64,000 nucleotides of DNA from an uncultured Poribacteria bacterium (GTDB lineage Bacteria; Poribacteria; WGA-4E; WGA-3G): contig OX639992.1 in assembly GCA_951828515.1 (NCBI GenBank), positions 1,826,008-1,890,007 on the forward strand, given 5' to 3'. Below are positions 763-29,273 of the stretch, in pieces; within the stretch, counting starts at the first letter, position 1; the number at the start of each line of letters is the position of its first letter. Below the pieces are notes generated by a model that was given only the letters and a program-made list of their open reading frames with translations, did not search any database and was not told where the DNA came from. Both the position numbers and the translations under genes were made by a program.

Positions 763-874
763 GCTTTTAATCCCTCCGTATAGAAAGTCACCAGTGTGTT
801 AAAGTCCAAGCACCTTTGAATAGGAAAGGCAAGAAGTCTAATGTCTGTTTTACCCGTCGATCTTCAACTGGATC

Positions 875-2130: not shown

Positions 2131-2467
2131 GTCAGGCAAGTCTGAACCTTTGCGTGCCTTTGCGTGTATCTGGAGGAAACGCCCAAGCAAAACCCCTCCA
2201 TTTCACTACGGACTACAGGCTTCGCAAACGAGGTTTACAACCCTGTCCTCTGCTTACTGACTGCCGACCCCTATTCCTAATTTTCCTTGCGGTTCGGTCA
2301 GGCTGGTTAGGATTTTGACGATCCTCATCGTAATCCAGCCCGGCACGTTGTTTGGGCTTACGTTTTTGGTACTATTAAGATCGTGTGCCCTCGACACTTC
2401 CTTCACAACCCGAAAACGACGACTTCACGAATGAAAGAAGTCGTCGTGGCGTACCATCATCAGAAGA

Positions 2468-4515: not shown

Positions 4516-4905
4516 CCCTCGCTTTTTGTTGCAGCTTGCAGGTTTCCAAAACTTGCCGTTAAATAGTGTGTGTGGTGCGTGTAAGTTCAATTTCATAATG
4601 CAAACGCCATAGTAGGTGCTATTCCGAAAGCAAAGCAGGCGTTTCAATTCACGCTTGAACCTTTATAATTATACCCTAAAATCCGTTTCCTGTCAACGGA
4701 TTTGTGTTTTGTATAGAGCAATCAGCAATCAGCAGTCAGCAATCAGCAGTTGCCATTTCCTTTTGCTGTGTTTCAGAGTATTCAGAGTAAAACATGGAAA
4801 GTGATAGGTCTTAGAAAGGGTTGTAAACCTTCACTACAACTGGGTTCTGGGCGGTTTTCATAGCAGGTGTTTTGTAGATTTACTCTGAAAGTCTACAGTT
4901 AGCAG

Positions 4906-5060
4906 TCGGGAATCGGAGTTCCCTCCTACAAGAGTCAGTGTTTAGATAGGGCACGGGTTCTGGGAAAAGTCACGACCGGGAGGTCACTCCTACAGAAGAG
5001 GGAGTCAGGATTCAGAGGTTGCTCCTACAGGAAGGCTTTGGGAATTGACAGGATCGGATT
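4906..5060. repeat. cluster of small-hairpin repeats of the GGGAATCGGAGTTCCCTCCTACAGAAGAG family
   Basis: Units GGGAATCGGAGTTCCC and GGAGGTCACTCC, each followed by TCCTACAGAAGAG. Related copies lie at 9340..9412 and 52791..52830. Confidence 0.5.
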
Positions 5061-5111
5061 CTCAGGGTATGATGCTGGGAATGAGAAAAAATAGAGATGA
5101 TGGAGAATTGC

Positions 5112-5531
5112 ATGAAACCTTATGAATACGTCGAACACACGGCTGATATGGGACTACTGGTTAGAGGGAAAAGTCTGCCTAATCTTCTGAAAAACGCGGC
5201 ACAGGGACTCTTTGAAACGATAGCGGTCGTGGATACAATTGATGAGACAGACTCGGTCGAGATCCACCTTACGGCTGAATCTGTGGAAGATCTCTTCGTC
5301 GGATGGCTTGACGAACTCATCTTTCAGCACGAAACGAAGGAGATATTTTTTAAACGCGCCGACATCAAAGACTGTAGTGAAACAGAGGTATCAGCGACGG
5401 TCTACGGTGAACCGACAAATTTCGATAAACACGAGGTTTACACCGAAATTAAGAGTGTTACGTATCATCAGTTGCAAGTCGTGCGAAAGTGTGATGGTAG
5501 CTGGTTTGCTCAGGTTATTTTCGATCTCTGA
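5112..5531 (+). CDS. archease
   Basis: N-terminal YEYVEHTADMGL is the archease signature (HTAD) and the size is ~140 aa. GGAG sits 8 nt upstream of the ATG at 5112; the ORF track start at 5097 is the alternative. Confidence 0.8.
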   Translation: MKPYEYVEHTADMGLLVRGKSLPNLLKNAAQGLFETIAVVDTIDETDSVEIHLTAESVEDLFVGWLDELIFQHETKEIFFKRADIKDCSETEVSATVYGEPTNFDKHEVYTEIKSVTYHQLQVVRKCDGSWFAQVIFDL

Positions 5532-5541
5532 TACACTGTTC

Positions 5542-9479: not shown

Positions 9480-10307
9480 CTAATACGCAACTTTAATTTC
9501 GCCCCAGAGGGTCGTGAGCTTGTCTTTGACATCGACATCAAAACCGTTTTTGTTTGTAACGAGAATGCTGTCGATCCGTCCCATTCCCCAACTTTCGTGC
9601 CAAACACCGACAGAACCGGCACCCTTGGTAGTGGCTTTGTCGGATTCAAGTATTGGGTCTCCGAGGTCATCGGAGGGTGCGAACAGGTCTTTGATTTCAT
9701 CAAGTTTCTTATACCAGACTTTAACGTTGTTGCCTTGGACCTCAACGCGTCCGAAATAAGCGACAGCATTGGTTTGATCGAGTCCAGCCCCTAAGCCGTG
9801 CGGTACACTGTCTATTTCCTTACCACCATTTTCACAACCGCACTGATCAAGGCATTGTCCGCTCGGACAACACCCGTCTTCCAGACTCATGAAAAGGACG
9901 GCCGCTGTCTCATTATAGCCAAAGACAACGAGATAGCCTTTATCGTCCCCTTTTCTACGGAATTGCAGACCGAAACTATCATCATCACCAAAGGAAAAGA
10001 CGGCTTGGACGATGCCGTCGGTAAAGTTTTTCACACCAGGCAGTTCTGTGTTACCAGAGATACCGCATCCCTCAGCGGTTTGCTTCATGGATCTTTTTCC
10101 ACCGATTTTGCCGCCTTCAAAATCATCCTCACCCCAGATGGTGCCCGCGTTTTCCGGTTTATAGTTTTTGACATTGTTCACATCAGCATTCGGTTTTGCG
10201 TCCTTGGAGCCGGGCTCAAAATCGGCGTAAAACACAACTTGACCGCTGGCGTGAAACGAAACAAGTAGACTCAAAACGAGGCTGAAAAGAAAAAAACGTG
10301 TCTTCAT
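9480..10307 (-). CDS. secreted hypothetical protein, paralog A (Cys-rich core DGCCPSGQCLDQCGCENGG)
   Basis: Signal peptide MKTRFFLFSLVLSLLVSFHASGQ. A GGAGGAG RBS precedes the ATG at 10307. It aligns over its full length with the adjacent paralog at 10564..11388. Confidence 0.55.
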   Translation of the reverse strand: MKTRFFLFSLVLSLLVSFHASGQVVFYADFEPGSKDAKPNADVNNVKNYKPENAGTIWGEDDFEGGKIGGKRSMKQTAEGCGISGNTELPGVKNFTDGIVQAVFSFGDDDSFGLQFRRKGDDKGYLVVFGYNETAAVLFMSLEDGCCPSGQCLDQCGCENGGKEIDSVPHGLGAGLDQTNAVAYFGRVEVQGNNVKVWYKKLDEIKDLFAPSDDLGDPILESDKATTKGAGSVGVWHESWGMGRIDSILVTNKNGFDVDVKDKLTTLWGEIKVAY

Positions 10308-10563
10308 GAATGTCTCCTCCGATTTCATAAAGAGTTGTGTTGCCGTTTATTCACAAGCAACAGCATGATGACAAGGCTATAGGCATCGCTTAGATACCCG
10401 TATCATCAAAGATGCCTTGTCTAAAACTAAAGTGGTGTTGGGTGAGGTACGGAGACCTCACCCGACAAAGATGAGTAGTGCAATGCAGAAAGACTGAGGT
10501 ATGGTAACCTCGCCCTGCAACGCCAGTTGATTCTATGCTATTTGTCTATATTAAGGCAGGAGA

Positions 10564-11388
10564 CTAATAGCTGCTTTTAACGTCGCCCCACGTCGTAGAG
10601 AGTTTGGCGTGCGGGTCGACATCAGTGGTGCCACCAGGACCGGTAACAAGGACGCTATCGACTCTTCCGTTGCCCCAACTTTCGTGCCAGATACCGACAG
10701 TACCGGGTCCCAAATCATCTGCGCCGTCATATTCAGCGACTGGATCGCCGAGTTCACTGGAGGCGGCGAAGAGATCGGACACATCGTCAAGTTCCATATA
10801 CCAGACCTGGATGAGACTTCCGATGACTTCAACGCGCGCAAAATAGGCGACGCTGTTGTCTTGTGAGAGATCTGCACCTAAGCCGTGGTCAACCCCGACG
10901 AGTTCATTCCCCCCATTTTCGCAGCTGCACTGGTCGAGACACTGCCCGGAAGGACAGCATCCATCTGCGAGGCTACCGATGATAATTTGGGGTGTTTCGT
11001 TATAGCCGAATCCGACGAGATAACCGCTGTCGTCTCCGACGCGCCGGAATTGGAAACCAACGCCATCATCGTCTTGCCATGAAAAAACGGCTTGGATGAT
11101 ACCGTCAGAGAAGCCATCGACACCGGGCAGCGGTGTATTACCGGAGATGCCACACCCTTCGGCAGATTGATGCAAGGCACCGCTGCCATCAGGAAATTCA
11201 TCTGACTCCACCCAAACGGTTCCAGCGTTTTCCGGCACCCAATTTGCTGGGTCGTTAACGCTGACATCCGGGATCGCTTTAGAGCCGCTTATTTCAAAAT
11301 CAGCATAGAAAATTACCTGTGCGCTGGCGTGGCCAATCAGTATAACTGAAAAAAGTGTGATGAGCACCATAAGGTGGGTTCTTGTCAT
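10564..11388 (-). CDS. secreted hypothetical protein, paralog B (Cys-rich core DGCCPSGQCLDQCSCENGG)
   Basis: Signal peptide plus full-length similarity to 9480..10307 (shared segments QVIFYADFE, AEGCGISGNT, GCCPSGQCLDQC, VAYF.RVEV, WHESWG). An AAGGAG RBS lies upstream of the ATG at 11388. Confidence 0.55.
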   Translation of the reverse strand: MTRTHLMVLITLFSVILIGHASAQVIFYADFEISGSKAIPDVSVNDPANWVPENAGTVWVESDEFPDGSGALHQSAEGCGISGNTPLPGVDGFSDGIIQAVFSWQDDDGVGFQFRRVGDDSGYLVGFGYNETPQIIIGSLADGCCPSGQCLDQCSCENGGNELVGVDHGLGADLSQDNSVAYFARVEVIGSLIQVWYMELDDVSDLFAASSELGDPVAEYDGADDLGPGTVGIWHESWGNGRVDSVLVTGPGGTTDVDPHAKLSTTWGDVKSSY

Positions 11389-11588
11389 TTTGTCACTCCT
11401 TTATTGGTTGAATTTCCACAAGTTAAGTAGTCTGCCTCAAAGTCAGTTTTGCCTGCTAAGGGCAGATTCTTATCAATAGGATGGTTTCTCGTGAAACCGA
11501 TACCTAAAATATAGCAAAAAAGCAAATTTCTGTCAAGAAAAGATAGAATTTTTATTTTTTGGGAGGCTTTGCCGTTGAAAGGGGAGGT

Positions 11589-11615
11589 GGCGAGGTTAGG
11601 GAATCTCGCCAGGGG
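11589..11615. repeat. REP-like hairpin GGCGAGGTTAGGGAATCTCGCCAGGGG
   Basis: Same family. Confidence 0.6.
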
Positions 11616-11741
11616 TGTGTTAATCAGCAAACAGTTTATAAATTTTAGACGTTCCGATAGTTTTCAGGTGGAAAGAGAAAGAGTAGACAGGCGATTGCTA
11701 TAAGTGGAGCGGAAGTGAAGGGTCTCTAACGCCACGAAAAA

Positions 11742-12650
11742 CTAAAGACTGCTTGATTGCTTATAGTCTTTCAACCTATTTTGCAACGTCCGGACGCTAA
11801 TCTCCAATACTTCCGCGGTTTTCGTTCGATTTTCGTTCTGCCACGCCAAAGTGTCGAGGATAAAGGTTTCTTCCATAGTCTTAAGGCTTGCTCCGAGAGG
11901 AACAGACACAGTTTGTTGGTTTTCAGGTGTGTAATTTTCTTTTGGTATGTTAACTCGCGGTTGCCCAAATGCCAAAATTTCTTCAGGCAGATGCCCAGGT
12001 AACACAGCCTCTCCATCTGACAAGATAACTGCGTGGATTAAAGCGTTTTCTAACTCTCGTATATTCCCGGGCCAAGGGTAGTTTTGGAGACGTGCGAGCG
12101 TCTCTGGTACTATTTTACGCACTGGCTGCGCGTAGGTATTACAATGTTTCTCCACAAAGTATTCTGTCAACATGCGAATATCCTCTCGCCGCTCGCGTAA
12201 GGATGGTAAAGAAAGAGAAACAGCATTCAATCGATAGTAAAGGTCTTTGCGGAAAGTGCCATTATCAACAGCCTCCGAGAGGTTACAGTGCGTAGCCGCA
12301 ACGATTCGGACATCCACTGGAATCGGCTTTGTTCCGCCTAAGCGTTCAATCTCACCCGTCTCAACCGCCCGTAACAACTTCGCTTGTAGGGAAAGTGGCA
12401 TATCTCCAATTTCATCAAGGAAGAGTGTCCCGTTGTGTGCGCTTTCAAATTTGCCGATGTGTTGCGTTTTCGCGTCCGTAAATGCACCTCTTTCATGTCC
12501 AAACAATTGGCTCTCAAGCAGCATATCCGGAATTGCGGCACAGTTGACAGAAACCATTTTGTTCCCCGACCGATCACTGTTTTGGTGTAAGGCACGTGCT
12601 ATCAACGCGTTAGGATATTTATAAAGAGGTCTATTTACTCGTTGGGAAAC
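11742..12650 (-). pseudogene. sigma-54-dependent transcriptional activator fragment (AAA+ sigma-54 interaction domain C-terminal part plus Fis-type HTH); N-terminus missing
   Basis: It encodes ...ALIARALH...VNCAAIP...[10 protein letters not shown]...LLRAVE (ESFGHE-like GHERGAFT loop) plus a C-terminal HTH. The Walker A GESGTGKE and the receiver/sensor domain are absent. The frame opens only at a stop near 12654, inside the 3' end of the upstream gene, and the track start is a TTG. Confidence 0.55.
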
Positions 12651-15857: not shown

Positions 15858-18731
15858 TTAATTATCGCGCTGAAAACGGAATATCCCATTATGTTCTGTA
15901 CCGACGTAAAGTGTATTACGATCAACAGCAAGGGAGGTAACTGTGTATGGTATTTCTGGAGCAATTTGTTTCCAAGTGTTCGTTCGGCTATCTACTTGAT
16001 AAACCCCGCTGGCACATACACTGTAAAGGGTTGAGCCATCCGTCGCGATCTGATCCATAAGGAGTGGACACCCGTCAGTATCGGTGAGTGCATGCCAGGT
16101 TTCACCCTCGCGTGAACGCATCACTCCTGCGTCCGTTGAGATGTAGAGGGTTGAACCTACAAAGAGAATGTCTTTGTAGTAAGCAAACGGAAAGGCGAGG
16201 CTTTGGGTAATGTTCTTCCAAGTATTTCCACCATCCAGAGACCGGAAGAGGTCCCCCTCTCGTTTACCGGCATAGATGGTATCGTCCGAAGCGGCAAGAG
16301 CGAAACCTGTCTTAAGAGGTGAGATTTCTCCACCATCTTCCAAACCGGTGTGGTGCCACTCCGTCTCGCCGGGTCGCCACCTGAAAAGTTTCCGTCGGTG
16401 TTCCATAAAAACGGCTTCCCCGACGAGGGTAAAACTCCCGTTTGTTCTGTCTTCTGTCAGGAATAAGTTCTCGTCCCATAATTGTTCCGCTTCACGATCC
16501 CTGACGTTTGTTTCTCTGGCTTTTTGGAGCCTCTTCTGCAATTCAGTGTAGAGATCGTCTTCCTCGAAATCCGGCATACCTGGAACTGGTATCAGGGCAT
16601 CACTGCTAACGGGAAGGTAAAAAAGTTGCGTCCGATTACCGGGAACACTGCTGAGATGGAGAGTTGTATTGCTTGTCTGTATCTTTGGATAGACCAGAAG
16701 TTTACCTTCACTCTCCACGTTAAGGGTCTCCCAAGATTCACCACTGTTTTTTGATTTAATAATCTCTCCACCGGTGACTGCATAGAGAGCGTTTTCGACG
16801 GAACTTAGATTTTGAACATTGAAATTCGCGATCCCTGTTACAAAGGGATGCCATGTGTCCCCTCCATCCGTCGAGCGCGTTATTCCGCCGTAATAGGTTC
16901 TGTAAAAATTGTTTTCGTCCAACGCGATAGTAGGAGAAGCTCCAAATGCATGTCGGTCATTTCCAAGATACATCCACGTCTCACCGGCATCATAGGAGCA
17001 TAATATTCCACCAAAACTTATTAACAGAATCTTTTTCCCGATTGGGACGACTCTGACTGCGACTCCCATCTCAGGGGTATGCGGCGTAATATCGGTCCAT
17101 GAATCGCCGAGGTCGGTCGAATAGAAGACTTGGGCTTCAGGACCATGCCGTCGATTTATGCTCGTCCCGACGTAGAGCCTCTCCTCGGCAACTGCCAAGG
17201 ATTTAATACCGTGATCAGTCGGCACCGGCAATTTTTTCCAATTACCGGACAATCGGAAAAGCCCCCGACTCGTTCCGACAAAAAGCGTGTTATCAATGGC
17301 AAGCGCGTCCCGAATATGGAACTCGAAATCACCATCTTCCCGGACAATATCGGATCGCAAGACATGTCCTATGAATTCCCACTGCTTCCCAGCATCTTCG
17401 GAACGAAACACTTCGGTTCTGAGGACGAGGTACATCGTCATATCAGCATTCCCAGACTTGTGTTGCTGAGTGCCATCGGTAATCACCAATGCGACAGGAC
17501 GTCCCTCGGGGCGTGAGCCGAGAACACTCCAGGTTTTACCCCTATCCGTTGAGGCTAAAAGTTCATCGGATGTCAGGAGATAGAGGGTATCCCGGTATTC
17601 TGTCATGACCTTGCTGAATTCTCGCTTCGGACCGCTGGCACTGACAAGTGTCCACGCGTCTGTCTGTGGTGTGAATCGGTAGAAGCCGGGTTTCGCAACA
17701 GCATAGAGGGATTGGTCAGCGGCGAGAAAGAGTCCGGGATATGAAACCTCCCCTGTTCCGTTCGCTTGAATCCATTGCGGTTTCGCGGCGCGAGCGTCTG
17801 CCTCCTTGGGAGGCAAGGTAGCAAGCAAGTTGGGTCCCGGTTGTTGTCCGGCGCCTGTATTTTTGCCGAGCGTATCGGTGTTTCCGAATTGGTTTCTGAC
17901 ATCAGGCTTTAGTTTCAACGGAAGCACAACGGGTGCCTCAACGAATTCAATTGTCATCTCCGATGTTGCGTCTAAACTGTAAGGTTGCTGGAAACGATAC
18001 AGCGCACGTGTACCCACACCAATCATTAGAAGAATGAGAAACGTTGATGCGAAGGAAAACCCCCAGGGCACCCAAGGTTTACTTGCAGAAGGGGCAGTCG
18101 GCTGGAGACGAGCGATTTCTCGCATGACGTTCGCAGTCAGGGTCGACGGTGCTTGGAAAATACCGGAGACATCGTGGAGGAGGTGTTCTTGCGTTTTCAA
18201 TCGCTTGCGAGCCCGGTGGAGCCGACTTTTGATGGTGTTCGGGGATACACCCAAAAATTCACTAATCTTTTCACACGGCATCTCTGCGAGATAGTGCATC
18301 GTTACAACCGTGCGTTCGCTCTCTGGCAGTTTTTGGAGAAGACGCTTGACAAGGTCGCGCTGGTGCTCAACGTCTGCAGCTTCAGCACCTGTTGCCTCAT
18401 ACGCTGCATAGGAGAGTTCCGCCAGTTGGACCCCGGGCATCGCATCCAGAGATGTCGTTGGCTCCTGTTTCTTCCGCATCCACGCGATACACTGACGCGC
18501 CGCAATTACATAAAGCCACCCGAGAAAATGATACGGGGGTTTCAGGAGCGACAACTTTTTGTAAGCTTTCAGGAAAATATCTTGTGTGAGCTCCTGGGCT
18601 GTGTGAAAGTCGCCGATCTTCCGCCACACAAAGGTGTGGATCGGTTTCTGGTATCTGTTGACAAGCACGGTAAAAGCGTTGTCGTCTCCCTCTAAAACCC
18701 GCTGAATTAAGTCAAAATCATTGGTCTCCAT
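15858..18731 (-). CDS. ECF sigma factor fused to transmembrane anti-sigma-like segment and large BNR/Asp-box repeat (beta-propeller) extracytoplasmic domain
   Basis: N-terminal sigma-70 region 2 (DLIQRVLEGDDNAF...) and region 4 (ESERTVVTMHYLAEMPCEKISEFLGVSPNTIKSRLHRARKRL). One TM helix (WGFSFASTFLILLMIGVG). At least 8 Asp-box motifs S/TxDxGxTW (STDRGKTWS, SEDAGKQWE, STDLGDSWT, SYDAGETWM, STDGGDTWH, SKNSGESWE, SLDGGNTWK, SREGETWH). Confidence 0.75.
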   Translation of the reverse strand: METNDFDLIQRVLEGDDNAFTVLVNRYQKPIHTFVWRKIGDFHTAQELTQDIFLKAYKKLSLLKPPYHFLGWLYVIAARQCIAWMRKKQEPTTSLDAMPGVQLAELSYAAYEATGAEAADVEHQRDLVKRLLQKLPESERTVVTMHYLAEMPCEKISEFLGVSPNTIKSRLHRARKRLKTQEHLLHDVSGIFQAPSTLTANVMREIARLQPTAPSASKPWVPWGFSFASTFLILLMIGVGTRALYRFQQPYSLDATSEMTIEFVEAPVVLPLKLKPDVRNQFGNTDTLGKNTGAGQQPGPNLLATLPPKEADARAAKPQWIQANGTGEVSYPGLFLAADQSLYAVAKPGFYRFTPQTDAWTLVSASGPKREFSKVMTEYRDTLYLLTSDELLASTDRGKTWSVLGSRPEGRPVALVITDGTQQHKSGNADMTMYLVLRTEVFRSEDAGKQWEFIGHVLRSDIVREDGDFEFHIRDALAIDNTLFVGTSRGLFRLSGNWKKLPVPTDHGIKSLAVAEERLYVGTSINRRHGPEAQVFYSTDLGDSWTDITPHTPEMGVAVRVVPIGKKILLISFGGILCSYDAGETWMYLGNDRHAFGASPTIALDENNFYRTYYGGITRSTDGGDTWHPFVTGIANFNVQNLSSVENALYAVTGGEIIKSKNSGESWETLNVESEGKLLVYPKIQTSNTTLHLSSVPGNRTQLFYLPVSSDALIPVPGMPDFEEDDLYTELQKRLQKARETNVRDREAEQLWDENLFLTEDRTNGSFTLVGEAVFMEHRRKLFRWRPGETEWHHTGLEDGGEISPLKTGFALAASDDTIYAGKREGDLFRSLDGGNTWKNITQSLAFPFAYYKDILFVGSTLYISTDAGVMRSREGETWHALTDTDGCPLLMDQIATDGSTLYSVCASGVYQVDSRTNTWKQIAPEIPYTVTSLAVDRNTLYVGTEHNGIFRFQRDN

Positions 18732-20443: not shown

Positions 20444-22294
20444 TTATTGACACGGTGTGCCGCTTGCCCGCAACAGCTGGTTTGCTCGAAATTGGTGGTT
20501 ATCAACTAAAATCGTAGGAGAGGCTCTAATGCCCAATTCCGCGGCACGTTTTATGTTCTCTCGGAAAAGTTGTTCTGCTTCCGGACTGTCAAATAGTGCT
20601 TGAATCTTCGCGACATCAATGCCGTATTTCTCAGCACAGTCCTCCCAACTCTTGTCCAGTTTTTTGCCGCGGCACAAAATATAGTCGAGATACTTATCAG
20701 GATACTCTCTCGCTATCAGTAACTGCCGAATGTTCTCTGCCACTTCGGGGTAGCCGTGTAGACTGGTGAACGGTGTTACCTCTTGGAGAGAAACAGTCTC
20801 TTTCTCTTGGGCGATAAAGCGGAGTTTAAAGTCAATTTTATCGCCAAACTCCTTCACGATCGGAATAATTTTCTCCTCCGCCTGAACACCGAATGGACAG
20901 TAACTCATTACAAAAAGTTCCAAGGTCGGTTTTCCCATTCGGGAAACCCGAGATGTCAATAATTCCTCAAGGTTCATCGGTTGGCGGCTGTGGTCCACAT
21001 CTTTGGTGTGGAGTGCTACCACTTCTGCAAACCCAGGCGAATGTTTTGTGTCGTGGCACGTAAGACAGAGCGATGTCTCAGCGGCGCGTCGGATATTCTC
21101 TTTCTTCGGATTGCCGACGTGTTGTTTGCCGGGACCGTGGCACGTTTCACATTGCACACCCTTAAAGGTCGATGTCTCATCACCAATCTGAAAACCTGTC
21201 TGGTAACCGAAGCCGGTCGTATGACAGGAAACACAATTCGGATTGAAGTATCGCTCTTTTTTCAACAGCGTTTCAAAAGCGAAAGCATGCCGTGTTGCAG
21301 ACCACTGGAGATATTCTTGCTCATGGCACCGCTGACAGGCAGTCGCTGATACATATCCGTTTTGCGGATCTTGTTCCAGTGGTTGTTCGGCAAAAAGGGG
21401 TTTGTGTTCAGACGATTGGGCAACCTCGCGGTAAAAATCGGTGAGCAACTGGCGCACGGATTCATCTTCTGGGACATCCCCGGTCAGTGCAAGTTGTGCG
21501 GCATGGTGTTGGGTTAGTTCACCGTCTGCATTCACCCAGAGTGCCAAAAAACCGAGTGTTTTCCCCTCAGATGTTGAACCTGCCCAAATCGGTGCGTTCA
21601 TCTGTTGAGTGGGTTCCACCTCTTCAGGACTGATGATGACATCGATATTAGGATGTTCCGTTGAGTTGGGTGTCCCTAAGGCAATCATCAGATTTGTATT
21701 TGGAAACTCTCGCTCAGTTGAAACGGGAACAACGGCAATTGAGAGTTCACCAGCAGTTTGAAGAATAGACGGTTGAGCGTAGGCGTGATTCTCATCAAGA
21801 AATGGGAATGATGCCGCAGCACGTCGCTCGATGAGATACGCATCTCCATAATTGAGGTCGTTTTGACTCAGCGCGATAGCGTCGTATCCCATTATGGACA
21901 TCGCTTTTAGATTTACCTGACACCTCTGTGTATCTATATCCTCGGTGCCATCGAAAATATCTCCAGCGTCAACCAAGAGCGTTGGAACGCCTTGTTGGCG
22001 GATTTGTGATATAAGGAAAGCACGCCTTGGCAAGCCACCGGCTTGTTCTTGATAGCATCCACACGGTTCCAGATGGCTTTTCGTGGCACCTGTATAGAGT
22101 ATCACGACAGAAGGTGGATCTTCACCTTCAAAGAGTGCGATAACGCTTTCAAAGGTTTCACCAATCGGTTGCCGTGCCTGTTGCTTGATTTCCTGAATCT
22201 GTTGCTGTCTGCGGGATTCCGCCCAATGTGTATATAGTGGTGGGACCCCGATAACAAGCGTTAGTAGAATTAAAGTGACGATAGCAAGCTTCAT
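20444..22294 (-). CDS. multidomain secreted/membrane-anchored protein: degenerate 5'-nucleotidase/metallophosphatase-like domain + tetraheme cytochrome c + C-terminal CPFG domain
   Basis: N-terminal hydrophobic anchor. VVILYTGATKSHLE...LLVDAGDIFDG...SQNDLN follows the 5'-nucleotidase pattern (ILHTNDHHS...LLDAGDQFQG...GNHEFD) with the His/Asp ligands replaced. Four CxxCH motifs (CQRCH, CVSCH, CETCH, CLTCH). C-terminal ~200 aa has SYCPFG. Its start is 2 nt from the upstream gene stop. Confidence 0.6.
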   Translation of the reverse strand: MKLAIVTLILLTLVIGVPPLYTHWAESRRQQQIQEIKQQARQPIGETFESVIALFEGEDPPSVVILYTGATKSHLEPCGCYQEQAGGLPRRAFLISQIRQQGVPTLLVDAGDIFDGTEDIDTQRCQVNLKAMSIMGYDAIALSQNDLNYGDAYLIERRAAASFPFLDENHAYAQPSILQTAGELSIAVVPVSTEREFPNTNLMIALGTPNSTEHPNIDVIISPEEVEPTQQMNAPIWAGSTSEGKTLGFLALWVNADGELTQHHAAQLALTGDVPEDESVRQLLTDFYREVAQSSEHKPLFAEQPLEQDPQNGYVSATACQRCHEQEYLQWSATRHAFAFETLLKKERYFNPNCVSCHTTGFGYQTGFQIGDETSTFKGVQCETCHGPGKQHVGNPKKENIRRAAETSLCLTCHDTKHSPGFAEVVALHTKDVDHSRQPMNLEELLTSRVSRMGKPTLELFVMSYCPFGVQAEEKIIPIVKEFGDKIDFKLRFIAQEKETVSLQEVTPFTSLHGYPEVAENIRQLLIAREYPDKYLDYILCRGKKLDKSWEDCAEKYGIDVAKIQALFDSPEAEQLFRENIKRAAELGIRASPTILVDNHQFRANQLLRASGTPCQ

Positions 22295-22296
22295 TG

Positions 22297-23445
22297 TTAA
22301 AAAAACCTATTTATAAGGGAGATTATCCCGAGGTGAAAGGGACCTTTACAGAGCACTGTTAACAATCCGCCGAATGTAATAACAGGTGCAAAACGAATCG
22401 CGGGTTGAATCCGAATCTTGTTATCAAAGTGTGCAAACGCGTTTTCTTTAACTAAACTCTGCAATTCACAGATTGTTTCGGCGGAAAGCCCGACTGGATC
22501 AGTTGTTATGAGCTCGGCACCTTGGCGTTCATTTCTATCCATCTGTTTCTCATAATGGGCACGACCATCCTCGCCTTCCTTTTTGACGATGTGTTCACTG
22601 AGGATCATCCCTACTTGGAGGTGTGACACTTCAATTATTCGATCAAATGCCACACTCGCTAACTGAAGCACGAGCTGCTTCGCTACCACAAAAATGAGTA
22701 GGTAGAAGCCTACAGAAAAGGCAATTCCTACCAGCAGCAGCCCGATGGAGGGGGCAGATTTCAGCATCAACCACCCGCTGAAAAATAAGATGACAACAAC
22801 AGCAGTTGGCGTTTTCAGCAAGGGACCCAAAACCTTTTGCATACCGGCAAAAACGAACAGGACTAATACGAGTCGCATCACTTGATCCAACTGCCAACCC
22901 AAACTATTGAAAAGGTAGGTAAGTCCTGCTCCAATAAGGATAAACTGAAGCAAACCATAGAGTTTCTCTAACAGGGAATCCCGATCAACGGAGGATTTGA
23001 TGAGTTGAATGAGCACTGCCCCTGTCCCCCGGACCCTGATTAACTTTACAATGAGGTAGCCTATTGCCACGATTGTGTAGGGAATGATGATATTGAGTGC
23101 CAATACTACCGGTGGAAACATTGATATCTCTTGTATAGGACCAAACCACCATGAAGGTAGTATTAAACAAAGCCCCCAGAATAACTTAGAGTCGCCGGGT
23201 GAAAAGACACCAAACGTATAGAGTCCGATGGCGATCGCACCACTAACCACAAATAGGATTGCAGCGTTCAAAGGAGTCGTAAGCCCCATAAAACAACCCG
23301 TTATTTGACCGAGGGTGCCTGCGTAAATGAGGCACATTGAACAGAGATTTGGTATTTTGTGGGTCTTTATGTCTGCATAACTTGCATAACCACAGAAGGT
23401 AAGAGCTATAGATAGAAGAACAGTCTCATAAATGAATGTGTTCAC
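22297..23445 (-). CDS. A24-family prepilin peptidase-like membrane protein with long C-terminal extension
   Basis: Both catalytic Asp motifs of A24/TadV/CpaA peptidases are present: ADIKTHKIPN (D-x5-IPN) and FSPGDSKLF (GxGD-KL). The ORF is 382 aa against ~170 aa for CpaA, with extra TM helices and a soluble C-terminal region. GTG start with a GGAAG RBS. Confidence 0.6.
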   Translation of the reverse strand: MNTFIYETVLLSIALTFCGYASYADIKTHKIPNLCSMCLIYAGTLGQITGCFMGLTTPLNAAILFVVSGAIAIGLYTFGVFSPGDSKLFWGLCLILPSWWFGPIQEISMFPPVVLALNIIIPYTIVAIGYLIVKLIRVRGTGAVLIQLIKSSVDRDSLLEKLYGLLQFILIGAGLTYLFNSLGWQLDQVMRLVLVLFVFAGMQKVLGPLLKTPTAVVVILFFSGWLMLKSAPSIGLLLVGIAFSVGFYLLIFVVAKQLVLQLASVAFDRIIEVSHLQVGMILSEHIVKKEGEDGRAHYEKQMDRNERQGAELITTDPVGLSAETICELQSLVKENAFAHFDNKIRIQPAIRFAPVITFGGLLTVLCKGPFHLGIISLINRFF

Positions 23446-23595: not shown

Positions 23596-23892
23596 TCAAC
23601 TCGAGCGACACACATTTATCACTTCGCGGATAACCCTTGTGACAAAGTCGTTTTCAACTGGATCCCAAACCCAGTCTGTACCTACAGCGACTACCTTTTC
23701 TACATACTCATTCCCAGGCCCACAATCACCATCGTTATTGCACTCATCTGCATACGCTGATGAATTAAACACGATAGCTTGGACAAGCATGAGCCCTCCT
23801 GTAGCAATACTAAGAGTCAATGGTGTTTTTATACCTACACGGCCTTCCTCAGAATTGAGAAAGTCTTGAATTTTCGACTTGAGATTTTTCAT
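23596..23892 (-). CDS. small protein, paralog 1: conserved N-terminal leader (MKNLKSKIQDFLNSEEGRVGIKTPL), hydrophobic segment, Cys-rich C-terminus
   Basis: 98 aa. The first ~45 aa are ~80% identical to 25235..25522, and the shared C-terminal motif is C-[ND]-N-D-x-x-C-x-P-G-N. The upstream 60 bp is conserved between the two copies. Confidence 0.55.
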   Translation of the reverse strand: MKNLKSKIQDFLNSEEGRVGIKTPLTLSIATGGLMLVQAIVFNSSAYADECNNDGDCGPGNEYVEKVVAVGTDWVWDPVENDFVTRVIREVINVCRSS

Positions 23893-23986: not shown

Positions 23987-24988
23987 CTATGGTTGTTTTA
24001 GATATCCCCACGACGTTGTCAGCAAATGAACTTGTGGGTGTACAGGCAACGCTCGTGGATCAAACCAACTCCCGAGGCTATTCACCCCTTGATGTGTCAG
24101 TTGCTTTGTCGATCGACGTGTGATATCAACTCTGAAGAGGTGTCTCTGCTCGTCAACCTTCTTTTCATAGAGGAGTTCAGTGCCATCAGGGCTCCACAGA
24201 GGGTGTCTCGCATATCCACCCGCTCTGGAGACGATCCGTTTCCTCTGTGTCCCATCGGGTCTCATAATATGAATCGTGGCCATATCGACTCGATCCAGAA
24301 GCCATGGAGCATCGGAAAAGGCGATCCATTCCGCGTCTGGAGACCATGAAGGGTACTTGTGACGTAAATCACCCAGAGACACTTTCCTCCGGTTCTGCCC
24401 TTCTGGCGAGATGAAAATGAGGGGGTAGCCTTCTCTTTCTTGTTGTGCGAAATTCGCTGCTGCAAAAGAGAAAACGATTCTCTCACCTTCTGGGGACCAC
24501 GCAGGTTGCCCGCCAAACTCCCCTGCGATAGCAAGCGGTTTTTCGTTTTTTCCATCAATGTCAGCTATGTAAATTGCCTCATCATGGTATCGGAAGTAAA
24601 CAATCCCTTTGCCATCAGGGCTCCATGCCGGTGCTGATCTGTCCGCTGCACTTCTAAAAACTCGTTTTACATTCTGACCATCCGCATCCATAAGGAACAC
24701 ATCTCGCTGACCGTCTCGATGAGACACAAAGAGAATATGTTCCCCTGTCGGTGAAAAGACGGGGGCATAATCGCGAGACAAGTGTTGTGTCAATTGGGTC
24801 ACTTCACTGCCATCGGGGTTCATGAGATAGATGTCCAGATTCCCTGTTATATCGGAGGCGAAGACAATCTTCGCTGTTTTCGGGGCTTTTGCCCAAGTCA
24901 GATCCAAAACACTGAAAAAAAACGATACGCAGAAAACGTAGAACATCAAAAGGGTAGGTTTCTTCATAAGTTTCTTTTCTGATAGCAA
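23987..24988 (-). CDS. TolB-like periplasmic beta-propeller protein
   Basis: Signal peptide, then repeated PxWSPDG blades (APVFSPTGEH, APAWSPDGKG, QPAWSPEGER, YPSWSPDAEW, HPLWSPDGTE). Start is either a TTG at 24988 with an AGGAG RBS or the ATG at 24967. Confidence 0.7.
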   Translation of the reverse strand: MLSEKKLMKKPTLLMFYVFCVSFFFSVLDLTWAKAPKTAKIVFASDITGNLDIYLMNPDGSEVTQLTQHLSRDYAPVFSPTGEHILFVSHRDGQRDVFLMDADGQNVKRVFRSAADRSAPAWSPDGKGIVYFRYHDEAIYIADIDGKNEKPLAIAGEFGGQPAWSPEGERIVFSFAAANFAQQEREGYPLIFISPEGQNRRKVSLGDLRHKYPSWSPDAEWIAFSDAPWLLDRVDMATIHIMRPDGTQRKRIVSRAGGYARHPLWSPDGTELLYEKKVDEQRHLFRVDITRRSTKQLTHQGVNSLGSWFDPRALPVHPQVHLLTTSWGYLKQP

Positions 24989-25234: not shown

Positions 25235-25522
25235 TTATTGGCAAAATGTATGTACTTCAACGATGTCTTCCACAACATGTCCTCGCATCGGACAAAAGAT
25301 CTCTTGAGTCCCAACAACAATTGTGACCGTTTGGCAGGTCTGGTTTCCAGGACATTGGGAGTCATTATCGCAAACTCTCCCAGCATCCGCATCGGGGGCG
25401 GTCATCGCTTGTGCAAGCAGAAGTCCACCTGTGGCGACACCGAGGGCTAGGGGTGTTTTCACGCCAACACGCCCTTCTTCGGAAGTCAGAAAGTCACTAA
25501 TACGCGACTTAAGATTTTTCAT
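25235..25522 (-). CDS. small protein, paralog 2: conserved N-terminal leader (MKNLKSRISDFLTSEEGRVGVKTPL), hydrophobic segment, Cys-rich C-terminus
   Basis: 95 aa, with an AAGGAG RBS and 5 Cys in the C-terminal half. Paralogous to 23596..23892. Confidence 0.55.
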   Translation of the reverse strand: MKNLKSRISDFLTSEEGRVGVKTPLALGVATGGLLLAQAMTAPDADAGRVCDNDSQCPGNQTCQTVTIVVGTQEIFCPMRGHVVEDIVEVHTFCQ

Positions 25523-25572: not shown

Positions 25573-27207
25573 TTAACCGGAACGGTTAAGCCCATTTCCA
25601 GCAAGAGGTACCTCGCGCTGGAAGTGCTTGAAAACAGATTCAACTTCGGCAGGGGTATGGTGTTTGGACAATACTTCTGCTAAAGCGTTTTCAAGGCGTT
25701 CAAATCGGTTTGTCTCCTGCCGATAGACACTCGGATAAGCCATTCCGGTTCTCGGGTCATAGTATCGGCAGAACAGGGGCTGACACAGGGATAGAGGTGT
25801 TGATGATTGGCAGCGTGTATTGGCACGCGCTGAACCTTGCTTAAACAGCCTCACAATCTCCTGAGCGGTGCGTTCCCACGTATATTTTGCTACGAATCCT
25901 TTTGCTACCTCCCTATACTTTTCGCATCTTTCCGTGTCACTTAGTAATTGGTTTATAGTTTCAGATAGATGCTGCATTGGAACCTCCAAATCGTTTCCTT
26001 TTCCAGCAGGACACTGGACAAGTACTCCCGCACCCTCAATTTCCGGCGGTAGTCCATATTTTGAAATCACAACTGCAGGGGTCCCGTATGCCATTGCTTC
26101 CAAAACCAATGAGGGGGAAGTCCCTGGTACAGCAGGGAAACAAACGACATCCAATGCTTGGAAGAATATGGGCAATACTGATCGCGTGCTTTCGTCACTT
26201 GCGTTGAAGATCACCAAGTTGCTCAGCGGATTCCGATATGCGTCAGCCAAAATTGAGTCGTAGACAAAGAAAACAAGGTGTGGGTTTGCAGTCGCGATAT
26301 CCAAGATATTCCGCATTCCAGCGTTTGGTTCAAATCCCGAAATAATACCCACCACGGGCCTCTGTGCAAACAATGGATTATCTGTAAGCACGGCAGCGTG
26401 TTGCTTGGCTAATTCTTTCCCGATAGGTTCAACGACATTGATGCCCTCTGAAATTGTGTGCACCCCTGCAGAGTCCACCCCGAATTCTGAGAGCCAGTCG
26501 GTAAGCCATGTAGCTTTGGACAGAATTAAATCTGTGGATTTCTGTGCCGTGTACGAATTCAAAGCAGATTCAAGGATTAAGGCTTGCATTCGTCTGTCAC
26601 TCTCTAAACAGCGAAGGACCGGCAGATTTTTAGAATAGTATAGGATATCGTGACTTGGAAATTGTCCAAGCAGTAAGATACCATCGTAGCCATCCATTGC
26701 ATACCAAGGGAACCAGAAATTTGAATGCTTCTCAATTATATCGCGATTTGATACGAACCCTCCAAAATCATGTCCCGGCTCCCCATTGATGTTGAAAGTT
26801 TCTAATTCCGCCAGTTTTGAGAGTGCTACCAATAGATGGAACCGGTTCTCGTTTGTTACAGGGTCCTGAACACTTTTTTCTGGAACAAACTGAAAGGGAA
26901 CAAGTAATTTGAGTCTCCTATCTGATTGAGAAGGTATGTAAGTGCTCCAAGTAGGACTTGACAACTGTCCCCGTTGACTGAGCCGTTGCAACCGTTCAAT
27001 GCCTTCAAAAATCTGCTCTATTTTGAATTTCGATCTTAACCTCTCAACAGTTGCATAAAGTGTTTCAGTGAGATTTTGATCAAGGAGTTCCCATTCCACA
27101 TCGTTAATTTCAACAATAGTATCAGATTCTAAGTCAGCGGCGTATTTTCGCCCCGACTGCTCAAATTTGCGGTGTTGATGCACTCGATATCTTGTTTCTA
27201 CCTTCAT
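25573..27207 (-). CDS. GT4-family (GT-B) glycosyltransferase with N-terminal PqqD/RRE-like domain
   Basis: C-terminal PAVPGTSPSLVLEAMAYGTPAVV is the GT4 E-x7-E region. The N-terminal ~90 aa (YAADLESDTIVEINDVEWELLD...IFEGIERLQRLSQRGQL) follows the PqqD pattern v.eLN..a..iw.l.dG..t..ei...l...y...eI..Dv..fl..L...GlL. Confidence 0.7.
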   Translation of the reverse strand: MKVETRYRVHQHRKFEQSGRKYAADLESDTIVEINDVEWELLDQNLTETLYATVERLRSKFKIEQIFEGIERLQRLSQRGQLSSPTWSTYIPSQSDRRLKLLVPFQFVPEKSVQDPVTNENRFHLLVALSKLAELETFNINGEPGHDFGGFVSNRDIIEKHSNFWFPWYAMDGYDGILLLGQFPSHDILYYSKNLPVLRCLESDRRMQALILESALNSYTAQKSTDLILSKATWLTDWLSEFGVDSAGVHTISEGINVVEPIGKELAKQHAAVLTDNPLFAQRPVVGIISGFEPNAGMRNILDIATANPHLVFFVYDSILADAYRNPLSNLVIFNASDESTRSVLPIFFQALDVVCFPAVPGTSPSLVLEAMAYGTPAVVISKYGLPPEIEGAGVLVQCPAGKGNDLEVPMQHLSETINQLLSDTERCEKYREVAKGFVAKYTWERTAQEIVRLFKQGSARANTRCQSSTPLSLCQPLFCRYYDPRTGMAYPSVYRQETNRFERLENALAEVLSKHHTPAEVESVFKHFQREVPLAGNGLNRSG

Positions 27208-27216: not shown

Positions 27217-28926
27217 TCACGCTGTCGCTTGAATAAAGCCGTAGCATCTCGCAAGTATCGCCTTCGCGGTATCCTCATCTTCAATGAGTTCACTAAGTAT
27301 TGTTTCCACTTCCCTGACGGTATGTTCTTTGAGAAGGCTAATAACCAATCCGTCCTCAACTTTCTGGTTAAAAATTCCGTAGGGATTTACAAGCATTTCA
27401 TATCGCGAATTCATATTGAGTACTATGGACTTCTGTTCTAACCGTTTCTGATGGGTGTTCCAATAAGATGAAAAAAAAGTGTTGAGTCGATTTTCACAGA
27501 ACAATTTCTTTTTCCAATTGAGTTCCGAGAACAAGTCAAGGATACGTTGCGCTGTTTTCTTCCAAGTGAACGTTTGTGCGCGATTCAGTGCCTTTTGAGC
27601 GTAGGCTGCTCGTAGGGAATTGTCGTTTAGCAACAGATTTACCCCTTCCGAGAAGTCAAGTGGAGAAGCATAACTGGCAATGCTCGTGATGTCCTGTTCA
27701 AAGGGAACGGTAGGAACGATCAAACCCGCATCTCCCACGACAGAAGGAACACCATCAAAATCGGAGATGACCGGTGGTACACCGCACGCCATTGCTTCAA
27801 GCACTGTTAATCCGAATGTCTCCTCGCCAGACACGGAAGGGAAACAATATACATCAAAGGCGTTGTAAATCAGCGGTAATTTTTCACGATCATAGAATCC
27901 GATATAGATAAGGTTCTCGGGAATTTTTCGCTGTGCGTATCTACCCTCATTCTGACCCGCCTGCAAAAAGAGAAGATGTGGGTTGAGTTCTGCCAACTTC
28001 AGGTAGATAGATGCCCCCTTTTCAGGTTGGAAACGAGAGAGGTAACCCACGGTGGGCATTGTTTTAATTCGTTCATCTCCTACGCGTTTCGCGAGTTCAT
28101 TCTTTGCCTGTTGTTTATCCATTGGACGGAATAAGTTTAAATCTACACCATTTGCGACAGTATTGAAAACACCTTTATCCCAGACGAACTGGGAATAAAA
28201 TTCGCCAACAGAATCTGTAGGTGCCGTGAAGGCATCATAATCCCGTAGAGCAGTATAGTGTAACAATACAGAACGCACGTTTGTACCACCATGTCCACCC
28301 ACCGAATGCACTTGCATTAGAATCGGAGGGAGTTCGGGACATCGGAATAGTGGGATGAATCCTTCTTGGCTACGGTCAGAGTGGATTGTAAGGATACCTT
28401 CATATTGCGAAGCAATCTTTTCGGGTATACGCACCATGTCGAGCAGACTCAAATCCACTTCGTAGAAATTCTCGCCAAGTTTTCTGTTTTGTGTGCCAGC
28501 AAAGTGAAGTACTGCCTGGTCTTTCAGAGCCTGAATAGTATAAGCGAGAGCAACATGGGTCCCAGCACTGGTATTTTCTATGTCTGAAACAGCATCGGGA
28601 GCCAACCCCTGGACCACCAATAAAAAATGTGGACAATCTCCTTTTTTGAAAAATAATACGTCGGATTTCTCACCACGATTAAGGAGTAAACCCCGTCCCA
28701 CATATTCGATCAATGTCTCAAATGCTTCTTCAATATCACCATCACTGTAAGCGGTTTTTAATGTCTCTATAATTTCCTCTGTCGTCCGTGTCTCCGCGAG
28801 TTTCAGAACATCAGCAATCGCAGCAGAGATTTCGACGAGACTTGCTTTATCCAAGTCTGCGGCGTAAAGTCCACCATCTTTTTCAAAAATATGGAGTTGA
28901 TGAAGAGGTTTCGGAAAATCAAGCAT
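27217..28926 (-). CDS. GT4-family (GT-B) glycosyltransferase with N-terminal PqqD/RRE-like domain (paralog)
   Basis: PSVSGEETFGLTVLEAMACGVPPVISD is the GT4 motif. N-terminal LYAADLDKASLVEISAAIADVLKLAE.RTTEEIIETLKTAYSDGDIEEAFETLIEYVGRGLL is PqqD-like. Start uncertain (ATG at 28926 or TTG at 28950). Only 10 bp separate it from the downstream paralog. Confidence 0.7.
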   Translation of the reverse strand: MLDFPKPLHQLHIFEKDGGLYAADLDKASLVEISAAIADVLKLAETRTTEEIIETLKTAYSDGDIEEAFETLIEYVGRGLLLNRGEKSDVLFFKKGDCPHFLLVVQGLAPDAVSDIENTSAGTHVALAYTIQALKDQAVLHFAGTQNRKLGENFYEVDLSLLDMVRIPEKIASQYEGILTIHSDRSQEGFIPLFRCPELPPILMQVHSVGGHGGTNVRSVLLHYTALRDYDAFTAPTDSVGEFYSQFVWDKGVFNTVANGVDLNLFRPMDKQQAKNELAKRVGDERIKTMPTVGYLSRFQPEKGASIYLKLAELNPHLLFLQAGQNEGRYAQRKIPENLIYIGFYDREKLPLIYNAFDVYCFPSVSGEETFGLTVLEAMACGVPPVISDFDGVPSVVGDAGLIVPTVPFEQDITSIASYASPLDFSEGVNLLLNDNSLRAAYAQKALNRAQTFTWKKTAQRILDLFSELNWKKKLFCENRLNTFFSSYWNTHQKRLEQKSIVLNMNSRYEMLVNPYGIFNQKVEDGLVISLLKEHTVREVETILSELIEDEDTAKAILARCYGFIQATA

Positions 28927-29273
28927 ATTTTTTGTCTCTATATACAACAAACTGAATCAACACATTATTTTATTTCAACTCGAAGAATGCCAATTCTTGA
29001 AATAATGCTCTGTTACAACGACAGATATCTCTAACGAATTTTTTACGTATCACTCAGCATTCTCTATGTTGCAATTCCCGTGCCAATTGGAAGAACCCAC
29101 GCCGTTCGTGAATTTTAGGAAAATGGGACTACGCAAATTTTTCGCAGTCGGCAAATTTTGCATACCGAATCTCTGCAGATATTGCAGAGTTCCAAAAGGC
29201 AGTGGCACCGGCGCGCGATATATCGGGGACGAACACTATGGTAAACTTTAGAATTAACTGTACACTCTGCACC

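Follow-up and report, generated by a model that had tools for sequence, protein, structure and literature searches.

Characterized peptidases of family A24 cut their substrates just N-terminal to a hydrophobic helix, after Gly or Ala (PMC4371748, PMC4985597; the GxGD family is discussed in the latter). FlaK has six transmembrane (TM) helices and a solvent-exposed four-stranded domain, with both catalytic Asp residues on the cytoplasmic side (PMC4985597, PMC4307647), and variants of the GxGD motif are documented in archaea (PMC4307647). The substrates of EppA from Methanococcus maripaludis (NCBIfam model NF053826) are class III pilins, which carry Gln at position +1 and are assembled by EpdJKL; EppA requires this Gln, and small or hydrophobic +1 residues are usual for FlaK, PibD and TadV (PMC4371748). 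Here we describe a gene for an EppA-like A24 (GxGD) aspartyl intramembrane peptidase in a 64,000-nucleotide stretch of DNA from an uncultured Poribacteria bacterium (contig OX639992.1, positions 1,826,008 to 1,890,007; hereafter the window). EppA is like the window protein in joining an A24 core to extra TM helices and an Arc_PepC-type domain, in the window protein a probable one, within ∼330–390 aa, and in being a second, specialised and larger peptidase dedicated to a substrate subset with a distinctive signal (PMC4371748). However, the host here is bacterial, no pilus genes occur in the annotated loci, and the candidate substrates, which are encoded beside the peptidase, carry Arg or Lys at +1 (83%), a basic linker, an A-x-A motif and a Cys-rich core. 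FlaK/PibD (PDB 3S0X; NF040695) differ in size and motif: FlaK has six TM helices in 230 residues, whereas the window protein has about four helices more, 382 residues, and S-P-G-D in place of G-x-G-D. TadV/CpaA are also non-methylating A24 peptidases for small substrates, but at ∼150–170 aa have neither extra helices nor a soluble domain, and no tad genes are present at the window cassette.

Two further systems resemble the cassette in which the gene lies. Pathways for RiPPs (peptides made on ribosomes and then modified after translation) that depend on a RiPP recognition element (RRE) share with it a conserved leader followed by a hypervariable core, an RRE homologous to that of the sactipeptide maturase CteB and a protease in the cluster; they differ in that the leader here is joined to a signal-anchor-like helix and the cores are disulfide-rich modules of 21–66 residues. 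Aspartyl or prepilin-type (A24) enzymes do not figure in a 2023 review of the leader proteases of RiPPs, and a literature search found no paper combining prepilin peptidase, RiPP and leader peptide. The HXS system is a recently described anti-phage defence of four proteins, with no A24 peptidase among them, in which HxsA is N-terminally cleaved, beyond simple signal-peptide removal, by a route that was left unexplained (PMC13128918). The leader of the mini-proteins described below is homologous to the HxsA3 N-terminus, and distant relatives of the peptidase adjoin HxsD and HxsB, whose scores exceed the equivalog cutoff. In contrast, NCBIfam scans of the window cassette proteins found no HxsB, HxsC or HxsD, only the leader matching HxsA3, and there are no HxS repeats; glycosyltransferase family 4 (GT4) enzymes with RRE domains and Cys-rich cores are present instead.

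The peptidase gene is found in a repeated cassette of small secreted proteins that share a leader, and not with pilus genes, which points to the enzyme most likely being their dedicated leader peptidase. On the comparative evidence given below, we think it probable that the protein processes these leader-bearing precursors, and that it is an active GxGD-type aspartyl intramembrane protease of the A24B/EppA-like kind rather than a pilus enzyme. The features of the gene are:

22297..23445, minus strand: EppA-like A24 (GxGD) aspartyl intramembrane peptidase gene, 382 aa
23371..23373, minus strand: codon for catalytic Asp25, at the end of TM1 in the motif Y-x-D-[IL]-K-x-x-K-I-x-N; invariant in alignments A1 and A2 (94 sequences)
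23191..23193, minus strand: codon for catalytic Asp85, in the S-P-G-D-S-K-L motif, a GxGD variant
23086..23406, minus strand: PF01478 Peptidase_A24 core, residues 14–120 (TM1–TM5), from Pfam
22645..23025, minus strand: extra membrane block, residues ∼141–267, about four TM helices, from AlphaFold2 helices and alternating Lys/Arg (K/R) content of the loops
22405..22644, minus strand: soluble alpha/beta domain, residues ∼268–347, PF06819 Arc_PepC-like, predicted cytoplasmic, from Pfam, AlphaFold2 and K/R content
22300..22398, minus strand: C-terminal helices, residues 350–382, with a near-invariant Q..x-F-A-P..G..T motif, from alignment A2 conservation and motif listing

The open reading frame (ORF) starts with GTG, with a Shine–Dalgarno-like AGGAAG 6 nt 5′ of the start. 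Its two Asp motifs are ADIKTHKIPN (residues 24–33) and FSPGDSKLF (residues 81–89). In alignment A2, comprising 94 diverse full-length relatives that are 18–57% identical to the query, only D25, N33, D85 and K87 are invariant, and G84, P97, N118, F352, A353, P354, G359 and T363 are at least 90% conserved. The family consensus around Asp85 is W-S-[AP]-G-D-[AS]-K-L, the first Gly of GxGD being replaced (here S-P-G-D). The window protein matches PF01478 with an expectation value (E) of 1.3e-5 (26.0 bits; gathering cutoff 26.5 bits) and PF06819 (Arc_PepC, ‘Archaeal Peptidase A24 C-terminal Domain’) over residues 248–335 with E 0.004 (17.7 bits; cutoff 23.4). It has no match at E ≤ 0.1 to PF06750, the N-terminal methyltransferase domain of PilD, and TM1 begins the protein directly. 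Relatives pass the Pfam thresholds for both domains, with 28–48.5 bits for PF01478 and, for PF06819, 37.0 (P0222), 32 (P0245), 28.8 (P0160), 28.5 (P0139) and 25.1 bits (P0124). The NCBIfam model ‘prepilin peptidase EppA’ (NF053826) is matched by 12 of the 94 relatives, and ‘preflagellin peptidase FlaK’ by five. The EppA model has 334 positions, of which P0245 covers 7–331 and the peptidase of a Chloroflexota locus (L084; 28% identical to the query over residues 5–380, tblastn E 1e-37) covers 8–330; the about four TM helices of the extra block are absent from the FlaK model (230 positions). Since the relatives score at most 58 bits against an EppA equivalog cutoff of 450, the family is homologous to EppA and not orthologous to it.

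Much of the original prediction for this gene was borne out by these comparisons: an A24 core with both Asp motifs in a 382-aa protein, far larger than TadV/CpaA and lacking the PilD methyltransferase layout. The extra TM helices and the soluble domain that it proposed are both real; the placing of the soluble domain at the C-terminus was not correct, as this domain is internal and is followed by the two helices with the F-A-P motif. The idea that the domain is an addition peculiar to this protein had to be abandoned. It is Arc_PepC-like (PF06819), of a kind known in archaeal A24 peptidases; FlaK has an equivalent beta-domain, and relatives align end to end with the EppA model. The regulatory or recognition role that the original prediction gave to this domain is speculative. 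Thus, the architecture is not new but is the archaeal A24B layout (PF01478 + PF06819).

A model made with AlphaFold2 from a 13-sequence alignment (pLDDT 43.8) was discarded, and the 94-sequence alignment gave a pLDDT of 90.5 and a pTM of 0.84. In the latter model, the PF01478 core is formed by helices 2–28, 33–53, 58–77, 83–95 and 111–137, and the extra membrane block by helices 141–152/155–181, 188–210, 213–230 and 234–267. The alpha/beta domain (268–347) contains strands 269–272, 285–290, 296–301, 311–313 and 343–347 and a helix at 322–333, and the C-terminal helices span 352–366 and 370–381. FlaK (3S0X) was the sole strong structural match in the fold comparison, and the membrane fold is of the FlaK type. 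Profile searches of PDB sequences with alignments A1 and A2 returned nothing, FlaK included, so the relationship to FlaK is visible by fold comparison only. The loop carrying Asp25 is rich in K/R and is therefore predicted to be cytoplasmic. Across the family, the mean K/R counts of basic loops 1, 5 and 7 and the soluble domain are 2.9, 5.5, 1.1 and 14, against 0.3–0.6 for loops 2, 4, 6 and 8; the soluble domain of the window peptidase has 10 K/R residues, on the same side as the Asp loops. These alternating counts predict that the topology is N-out and that the two Asp loops, like the soluble domain, are cytoplasmic, which agrees with the published FlaK descriptions.

A word-indexed search returned 561 homologues of 378–382 aa, which form two or more groups of paralogues, one at ∼80% and another at ∼51% identity, and all the named ones were from Candidatus Poribacteria; a repeat with a diverse alignment was saturated by Poribacteria and gained no wider taxonomy. 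When 1.84 billion representatives were searched exhaustively with the profile, 540 clusters (50% identity) reached E ≤ 1e-3, of which 205 were at ≤ 1e-10 and 46 at ≤ 1e-30. Among the best 150 of the 540 representatives, the majority cover profile positions ∼5–375, with lengths of 350–390 aa. With most relatives matching the profile end to end, the C-terminal half is never a separate gene, as the original prediction implied. A scan of one genome per GTDB species found 80 peptidase loci, nearly all in Candidatus Poribacteria, the others being in a few unclassified metagenome-assembled genomes (MAGs) and in one MAG each from Chloroflexota and Dehalococcoidia. Poribacterial chromosomes carry up to four loci (e.g. 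OZ244804.1), with every copy inside such a cassette.

A 785-aa GT4-peptidase ORF (P0137) was considered as evidence of a fusion and rejected: its glycosyltransferase domain is truncated (profile positions 13–141 of 172), the point of joining coincides exactly with the start Met of the peptidase itself, and a cytoplasmic domain on an N-out TM1 conflicts with the predicted topology. On its contig (L001; regions 10001-12358, which is P0137, and 4661-6264), P0137 joins a truncated GT4 with an RRE (RRE-GT4) to a complete peptidase, probably by deletion or as an assembly artefact. The contig also carries a second, intact peptidase and, on the opposite strand, a GT2, a radical S-adenosylmethionine (SAM) enzyme and a 72-aa ORF that contains F-L-T-L-E-E-G-A-G and has no hydrophobic helix.

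The proposed substrates are two mini-proteins encoded upstream of the peptidase:

23596..23892, minus strand: mini-protein 1, 98 aa, proposed substrate, 150 nt upstream of the peptidase
25235..25522, minus strand: mini-protein 2, 95 aa; it shares the leader of mini-protein 1 and has A45-D-A47, but its Cys-rich core differs

Mini-protein 1 is the leader-bearing protein that the earlier reading had placed directly upstream of the peptidase. With mini-protein 2, 1.8 kb from the peptidase, it makes up the whole set of leader-bearing ORFs in the 64-kb window. It consists of a leader (residues 1–17, MKNLKSKIQDFLNSEEG), a basic linker (RVGIKT), a hydrophobic helix (24–42), A46-Y-A48 and a Cys/Asp-rich core (49–98). 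Its N-terminus matches positions 4–46 of NF038309 HxsA3 with E 8e-5 (22 bits; cutoff 65). A hidden Markov model (HMM) was built from nine leaders, and all ORFs of 86 sources were searched with it. The resulting consensus reads M-K-x-N-L-R-G-K-I-R-[ED]-F(96%)-L-x-S(84%)-E(98%)-E(68%)-G(98%) and continues [RK](83%)-V(92%)-G(82%)-x-K(86%)-x-P(77%)-L(90%)-x-L-G(88%), followed by a hydrophobic stretch of 18–20 residues and then A(81%)-x-A(90%), which is preceded by P, G or T. The N-terminus thus contains two readable processing signals, a class III-like Gly on the cytoplasmic side and a signal-peptidase-I-like A-x-A on the far side. The cores that follow A-x-A are hypervariable, 21–66 residues long (median 38), and contain 14.6% Cys (usually four or six Cys) and 11% Asp.

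The leader segment F-L-x-[SD]-E-[ES]-G is reminiscent of the Flp leader (e.g. R-F-L-K-D-E-S-G|A-T-A-I-E-Y), which we take as a lead only; Flp_Fap (PF04964) had no match in the 15 mini-proteins scanned at E ≤ 10, and the E5/Y6 signature is lacking in them. A leader of the double-glycine/C39 type was considered and dropped, since neither a C39 nor a PCAT gene is present in the cassette and the motif is a poor match. A word-indexed search with the mini-protein found 29 close relatives only, in Poribacteria. The Cys-rich cores (window positions 23599-23748 and 25238-25381) gave sub-threshold Pfam matches only, to EB module, Squash inhibitor, WAP, EGF and Dickkopf; such eukaryote-type disulfide modules are noteworthy in a sponge symbiont, but the spacing of the cysteines may be all that the matches reflect. 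In L003 (1323-14590), and also in L004, L010 and L083, a mini-protein (73–80 aa) and a PD40 propeller (∼330 aa) form pairs that are repeated six to eight times in tandem, with near-identical leaders and hypervariable cores. In L023 (14595-15743), a PD40 propeller gene with its signal peptide intact is preceded, in frame, by the first 28 residues of a mini-protein leader; this appears to be what is left of a decayed mini-protein gene and suggests turnover within arrays.

The leader HMM identified 164 leader-bearing ORFs (154 unique leaders) in 74 of the 86 sources, and a second round added the Chloroflexota locus, making 75. Several sources with no leader match are contigs of 2.6–4.7 kb. The association is also kept at low identity: 16 of 19 loci whose peptidase is <40% identical to the query have a leader (L005, L066–L082, L084, L087 and L088; 21–35% identity), and the three negatives are on short or truncated contigs. 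Two divergent peptidases (P0151 and P0202, 21–24% identity) adjoin leaders that read F-F-T-S-E-S-G and F-F-S-S-D-S-G, together with A-x-A and Cys-rich cores. A metagenome scan with the leader gave three loci, these being a full cassette (L089), a 1.9-kb contig with a leader-bearing mini-protein and a chance match; with only three loci, this reciprocal leader-to-peptidase test is weak. The cassette is multi-copy in essentially every Poribacteria genome sampled.

The same leader and peptidase family occur together outside Poribacteria. The Chloroflexota locus (L084, MAG SpSt-1225, 2-3477) encodes a His/Ser-rich 83-aa peptide with the same leader, which matches HxsA3 over nearly the whole model (E 1.4e-7). 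Its gene is immediately upstream of the peptidase gene and is followed, after the latter, by genes for a 270-aa HxsD-like protein, an UshA-like protein and ATPases of ATP-binding cassette (ABC) transporters, and this cassette seems to stand midway between the Poribacteria one and HXS systems. All five of the most distant peptidases that were sampled (P0200, from a Woesearchaeota archaeon, P0216, P0247, P0264 and P0270) adjoin HxsD and a radical SAM enzyme. The latter is above the HxsB equivalog cutoff in four of the five loci (388–485 bits versus 370), and in L093 it lies outside the scan. In the variant HXS loci L092, L093, L094, L095 and L002 the peptidase, at 6001 or 10001, is directly next to HxsD. 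Three of them (L092, L094 and L095) encode an HxsA3/A4-like HxS-repeat precursor with a K-I-S-x-F-L-x-x-E-[ED]-G-x-I-S-K leader and then a hydrophobic helix, and L094 also encodes an HxsC4-like enzyme. The leader match to HxsA3 is 1e-7 to 1e-8 for L084, L092 and L095. No NCBIfam model covers the peptidase family beside HxsD.

Thus, the leader and the peptidase family are common to both systems, while the cores (HxS repeats versus Cys-rich) and the tailoring enzymes (HxsB/C versus GT4) differ, which argues that the leader is what the peptidase recognizes; this is the strongest evidence that we have. It is likely, as part of the same overall explanation, that this peptidase–leader pair also serves precursors with HxS repeats where other lineages carry variant HXS cassettes (HxsA3/A4-type). 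With leaders in 75 of 86 sources, in 16 of 19 low-identity loci and in HxS-type cassettes, the original suggestion of a dedicated leader peptidase is well supported by comparative genomics.

The minus-strand operon reads, in order, RRE-GT4, RRE-GT4, the 95-aa mini-protein, a PD40 propeller, the 98-aa mini-protein, the peptidase, a UshA/cytochrome/DsbA fusion, a nucleotidylyltransferase and a fusion protein of an extracytoplasmic function (ECF) sigma factor. The remaining features of the operon are:

28993-28964, minus strand: promoter-like site ahead of the operon
27217..28950, minus strand: RRE-GT4 glycosyltransferase, 577 aa, first gene of the operon (PF00534, E 1e-23); N-terminus resembles ScfB-type radical SAM maturases
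25573..27207, minus strand: RRE-GT4 glycosyltransferase, 544 aa (PF00534)
23987..24988, minus strand: PD40/TolB-like beta-propeller, secreted (Sec signal), 333 aa (PF07676, E 1e-24)
20444..22294, minus strand: UshA-like / cytochrome c554 / DsbA-like fusion, 616 aa, beginning 2 nt past the peptidase stop codon
19574..20251, minus strand: sugar-1-phosphate nucleotidylyltransferase, 225 aa, mannose-1-P guanylyltransferase-like (E 3e-37)
15858..18731, minus strand: ECF sigma factor fused via a central TM segment to a BNR/Sortilin-like repeat domain, 957 aa (Pfam labels in L003/L004)

In the alignment of the first ∼90 residues of both GT4 families (A6, 21 diverse sequences), the profile matches residues 4–82 of CteB (5wgg_A) with E 2.8e-15, and PqqD (PF05402) is found in 13 of the 21 members. 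We take the N-terminal region of CteB to be a leader-binding RRE, as is established. This homology suggests that the cassette follows RiPP logic, in which tailoring enzymes bind the leader and the leader is then removed. Two properties of a RiPP-like cassette are found here, in that the tailoring enzymes have an RRE and the precursor joins a variable core to a conserved leader, the modification itself being presumed. A 2025 survey noted RRE fusions for GT2 (PF00535) and not for GT4 (PF00534), the family present here.

In the 616-aa fusion, a UshA-like domain of the metallophosphatase type is combined with cytochrome c554/multihaem motifs and with a thioredoxin domain that is DsbA-like. The protein scores 220 bits against the NCBIfam model ‘UshA-like (seleno)protein’ (cutoff 275), and the oxidation of disulfides in the Cys-rich cores may be its dedicated function. 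The nucleotidylyltransferase probably supplies the sugar donor, and the ECF-Sortilin fusion is a possible one-component regulator of the cassette. Among the 86 sources, the cytochrome/DsbA fusion is a neighbour in 66 (its homologues include the Chloroflexota locus), GT4 in 62, the ECF-Sortilin fusion in 52, the PD40 propeller in 50 and the nucleotidylyltransferase in 21. The gene directly after a mini-protein gene (n = 163) is a PD40 propeller in 88 cases and the peptidase in 12; the ECF-Sortilin fusion follows 16 mini-protein genes. In L005, Kelch-type propellers take the place of PD40. No convincing terminator or attenuator was found between the mini-protein and the peptidase, the counts being those expected from shuffled sequence. 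Two other window genes, for a DUF6785/DUF6784 protein (5542-7464, minus strand; E 1e-151) and an N-terminally short AAA+ ORF of the sigma-54 activator type (11742-12605, minus strand), appear to be unconnected to the cassette.

A mechanism can be proposed from these elements. The precursors bear the conserved N-terminal leader K-I-R-x-F-L-x-S-E-E-G. This leader would be bound in the cytoplasm by the RRE domains of both GT4 enzymes, for which the homology is clear, and the precursor would then be glycosylated. The hydrophobic helix would insert N-in/C-out, and the peptidase, with its Asp pair predicted to face the cytoplasm, would cut after the invariant Gly, EEG|[RK]VG, before the helix. We infer a cut at this Gly by analogy with prepilin peptidases, which cleave class III signals immediately ahead of the hydrophobic helix; placing it exactly after G17 of mini-protein 1 (EEG|RVG) has about an even chance of being right. 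Outside, the cytochrome/DsbA fusion would oxidize the Cys-rich core, which may be released at A-x-A by signal peptidase I or stay anchored, and which may pair with the adjacent beta-propeller.

Several observations weigh against the peptidase being the processing enzyme of the mini-proteins. Its cleavage of them, the position of the cut and, wholly so, the glycosylation of the precursors are things that we infer from sequence. The window peptidase is just below the Pfam thresholds for both of its domains and has no match in NCBIfam, the EppA model included (E ≤ 0.1). A basic seven-residue linker, [RK]-V-G-x-K-x-P, separates the proposed cut from the hydrophobic helix, and in known prepilins and archaellins nothing lies between the cut site and the helix. 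At +1 there is R/K, unlike the Q of EppA substrates or the small or hydrophobic residue of FlaK, PibD and TadV substrates. In two distant loci (L002 and L086), neither a leader-bearing nor an HxS-rich ORF was found. Finally, the conserved A-x-A (81% and 90%) after the hydrophobic region would by itself make an ordinary Sec/signal-peptidase-I signal, with no obvious need for a second cut. The mini-proteins might then be ordinary Sec substrates that signal peptidase I cuts at A-x-A, with the A24 homologue either clearing the signal remnant, as signal peptide peptidases do, or acting as a scaffold or chaperone that couples the glycosyltransferases to export. We consider this unlikely, though it is the most serious alternative. 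The A-x-A, coming right after the 18–20-residue hydrophobic stretch and preceded by P/G/T, is a textbook c-region, basic residues flank the helix on the cytoplasmic side, the GxGD proteases include signal peptide peptidases, and a cytochrome/DsbA partner implies a soluble periplasmic core. However, the best-conserved block of the precursors, S-E-E-G-[RK]-V-G-x-K (Gly 98%), is on the cytoplasmic side, as is the predicted active site; the invariance of both catalytic Asp residues argues against a pure scaffold, and characterized A24 enzymes cut N-terminal to the helix after Gly/Ala and not within released remnants.

The source annotations of the homologues, ‘prepilin peptidase’ or ‘CpaA’ (‘Flp pilus assembly protein protease CpaA’ in those of the Joint Genome Institute), would suit an enzyme that serves as the organism's prepilin/Flp-type peptidase for pilins encoded elsewhere, its adjacency to the mini-proteins being incidental. 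The up to four copies per genome, each in the same cassette, make this very improbable, as does the lack of type IV filament genes (T2SSE/T2SSF-type; pilus ATPase/platform) in the Pfam-annotated loci and the window genes scanned. The mini-proteins lack the Flp_Fap match and the E5/Y6 signature, and their mature parts are Cys-rich globular modules that are not pilin-like. Equally improbable is a substrate elsewhere in the cassette, i.e. the propeller, the cytochrome/DsbA fusion or the ECF-sigma fusion, with the peptidase acting, for example, as a regulated intramembrane protease for the ECF sigma factor. The ECF-Sortilin fusion does have a central TM segment and is a frequent neighbour (52 of 86 sources), and the activity of ECF sigma factors is often regulated through intramembrane proteolysis. 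Against this, the HxS-type and Chloroflexota cassettes keep the peptidase and the leader precursor and have no ECF fusion or propeller, the propeller and the cytochrome fusion carry ordinary N-terminal signals or anchors, and the intramembrane proteases known to control ECF sigma factors are site-2 metalloproteases or rhomboids, with none from A24.

The interpretation that we prefer, a peptidase dedicated to the leader-bearing precursors, thus concerns an EppA-like A24 peptidase in Bacteria with what appears to be non-pilin cargo, in a cassette context that appears to be new. The A-x-A site on the mini-proteins and the RRE domains on the GT4 enzymes change the mechanistic picture. As a tentative extension, which we put forward with less than even confidence, the leader and its peptidase may form a portable maturation and sorting module, in which a RiPP-type leader welded to a signal-anchor is read by RRE enzymes (GT4 here, HxsB-type radical SAM enzymes elsewhere) and removed by an EppA-like GxGD protease. 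In Poribacteria, which are dominant sponge symbionts, this module would have expanded to as many as four cassettes per genome, making disulfide-rich and probably glycosylated mini-proteins, each with its own propeller, which may mediate symbiont–host or symbiont–phage interactions; the same family would be the missing N-terminal protease of HxsA3/A4-type HXS.

If the assignment is true, an A24 aspartyl intramembrane protease would join the leader peptidases of RiPP-like pathways, class III-type signal processing would be used in Bacteria for non-pilin cargo, and there would be a concrete candidate for the N-terminal processing in variant HXS systems. The cassette served by the peptidase is a more interesting object than the peptidase architecture. 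It exposes a large unannotated gene system in Poribacteria, whose small secreted disulfide-rich proteins and propellers are plausible mediators of host or phage interaction.

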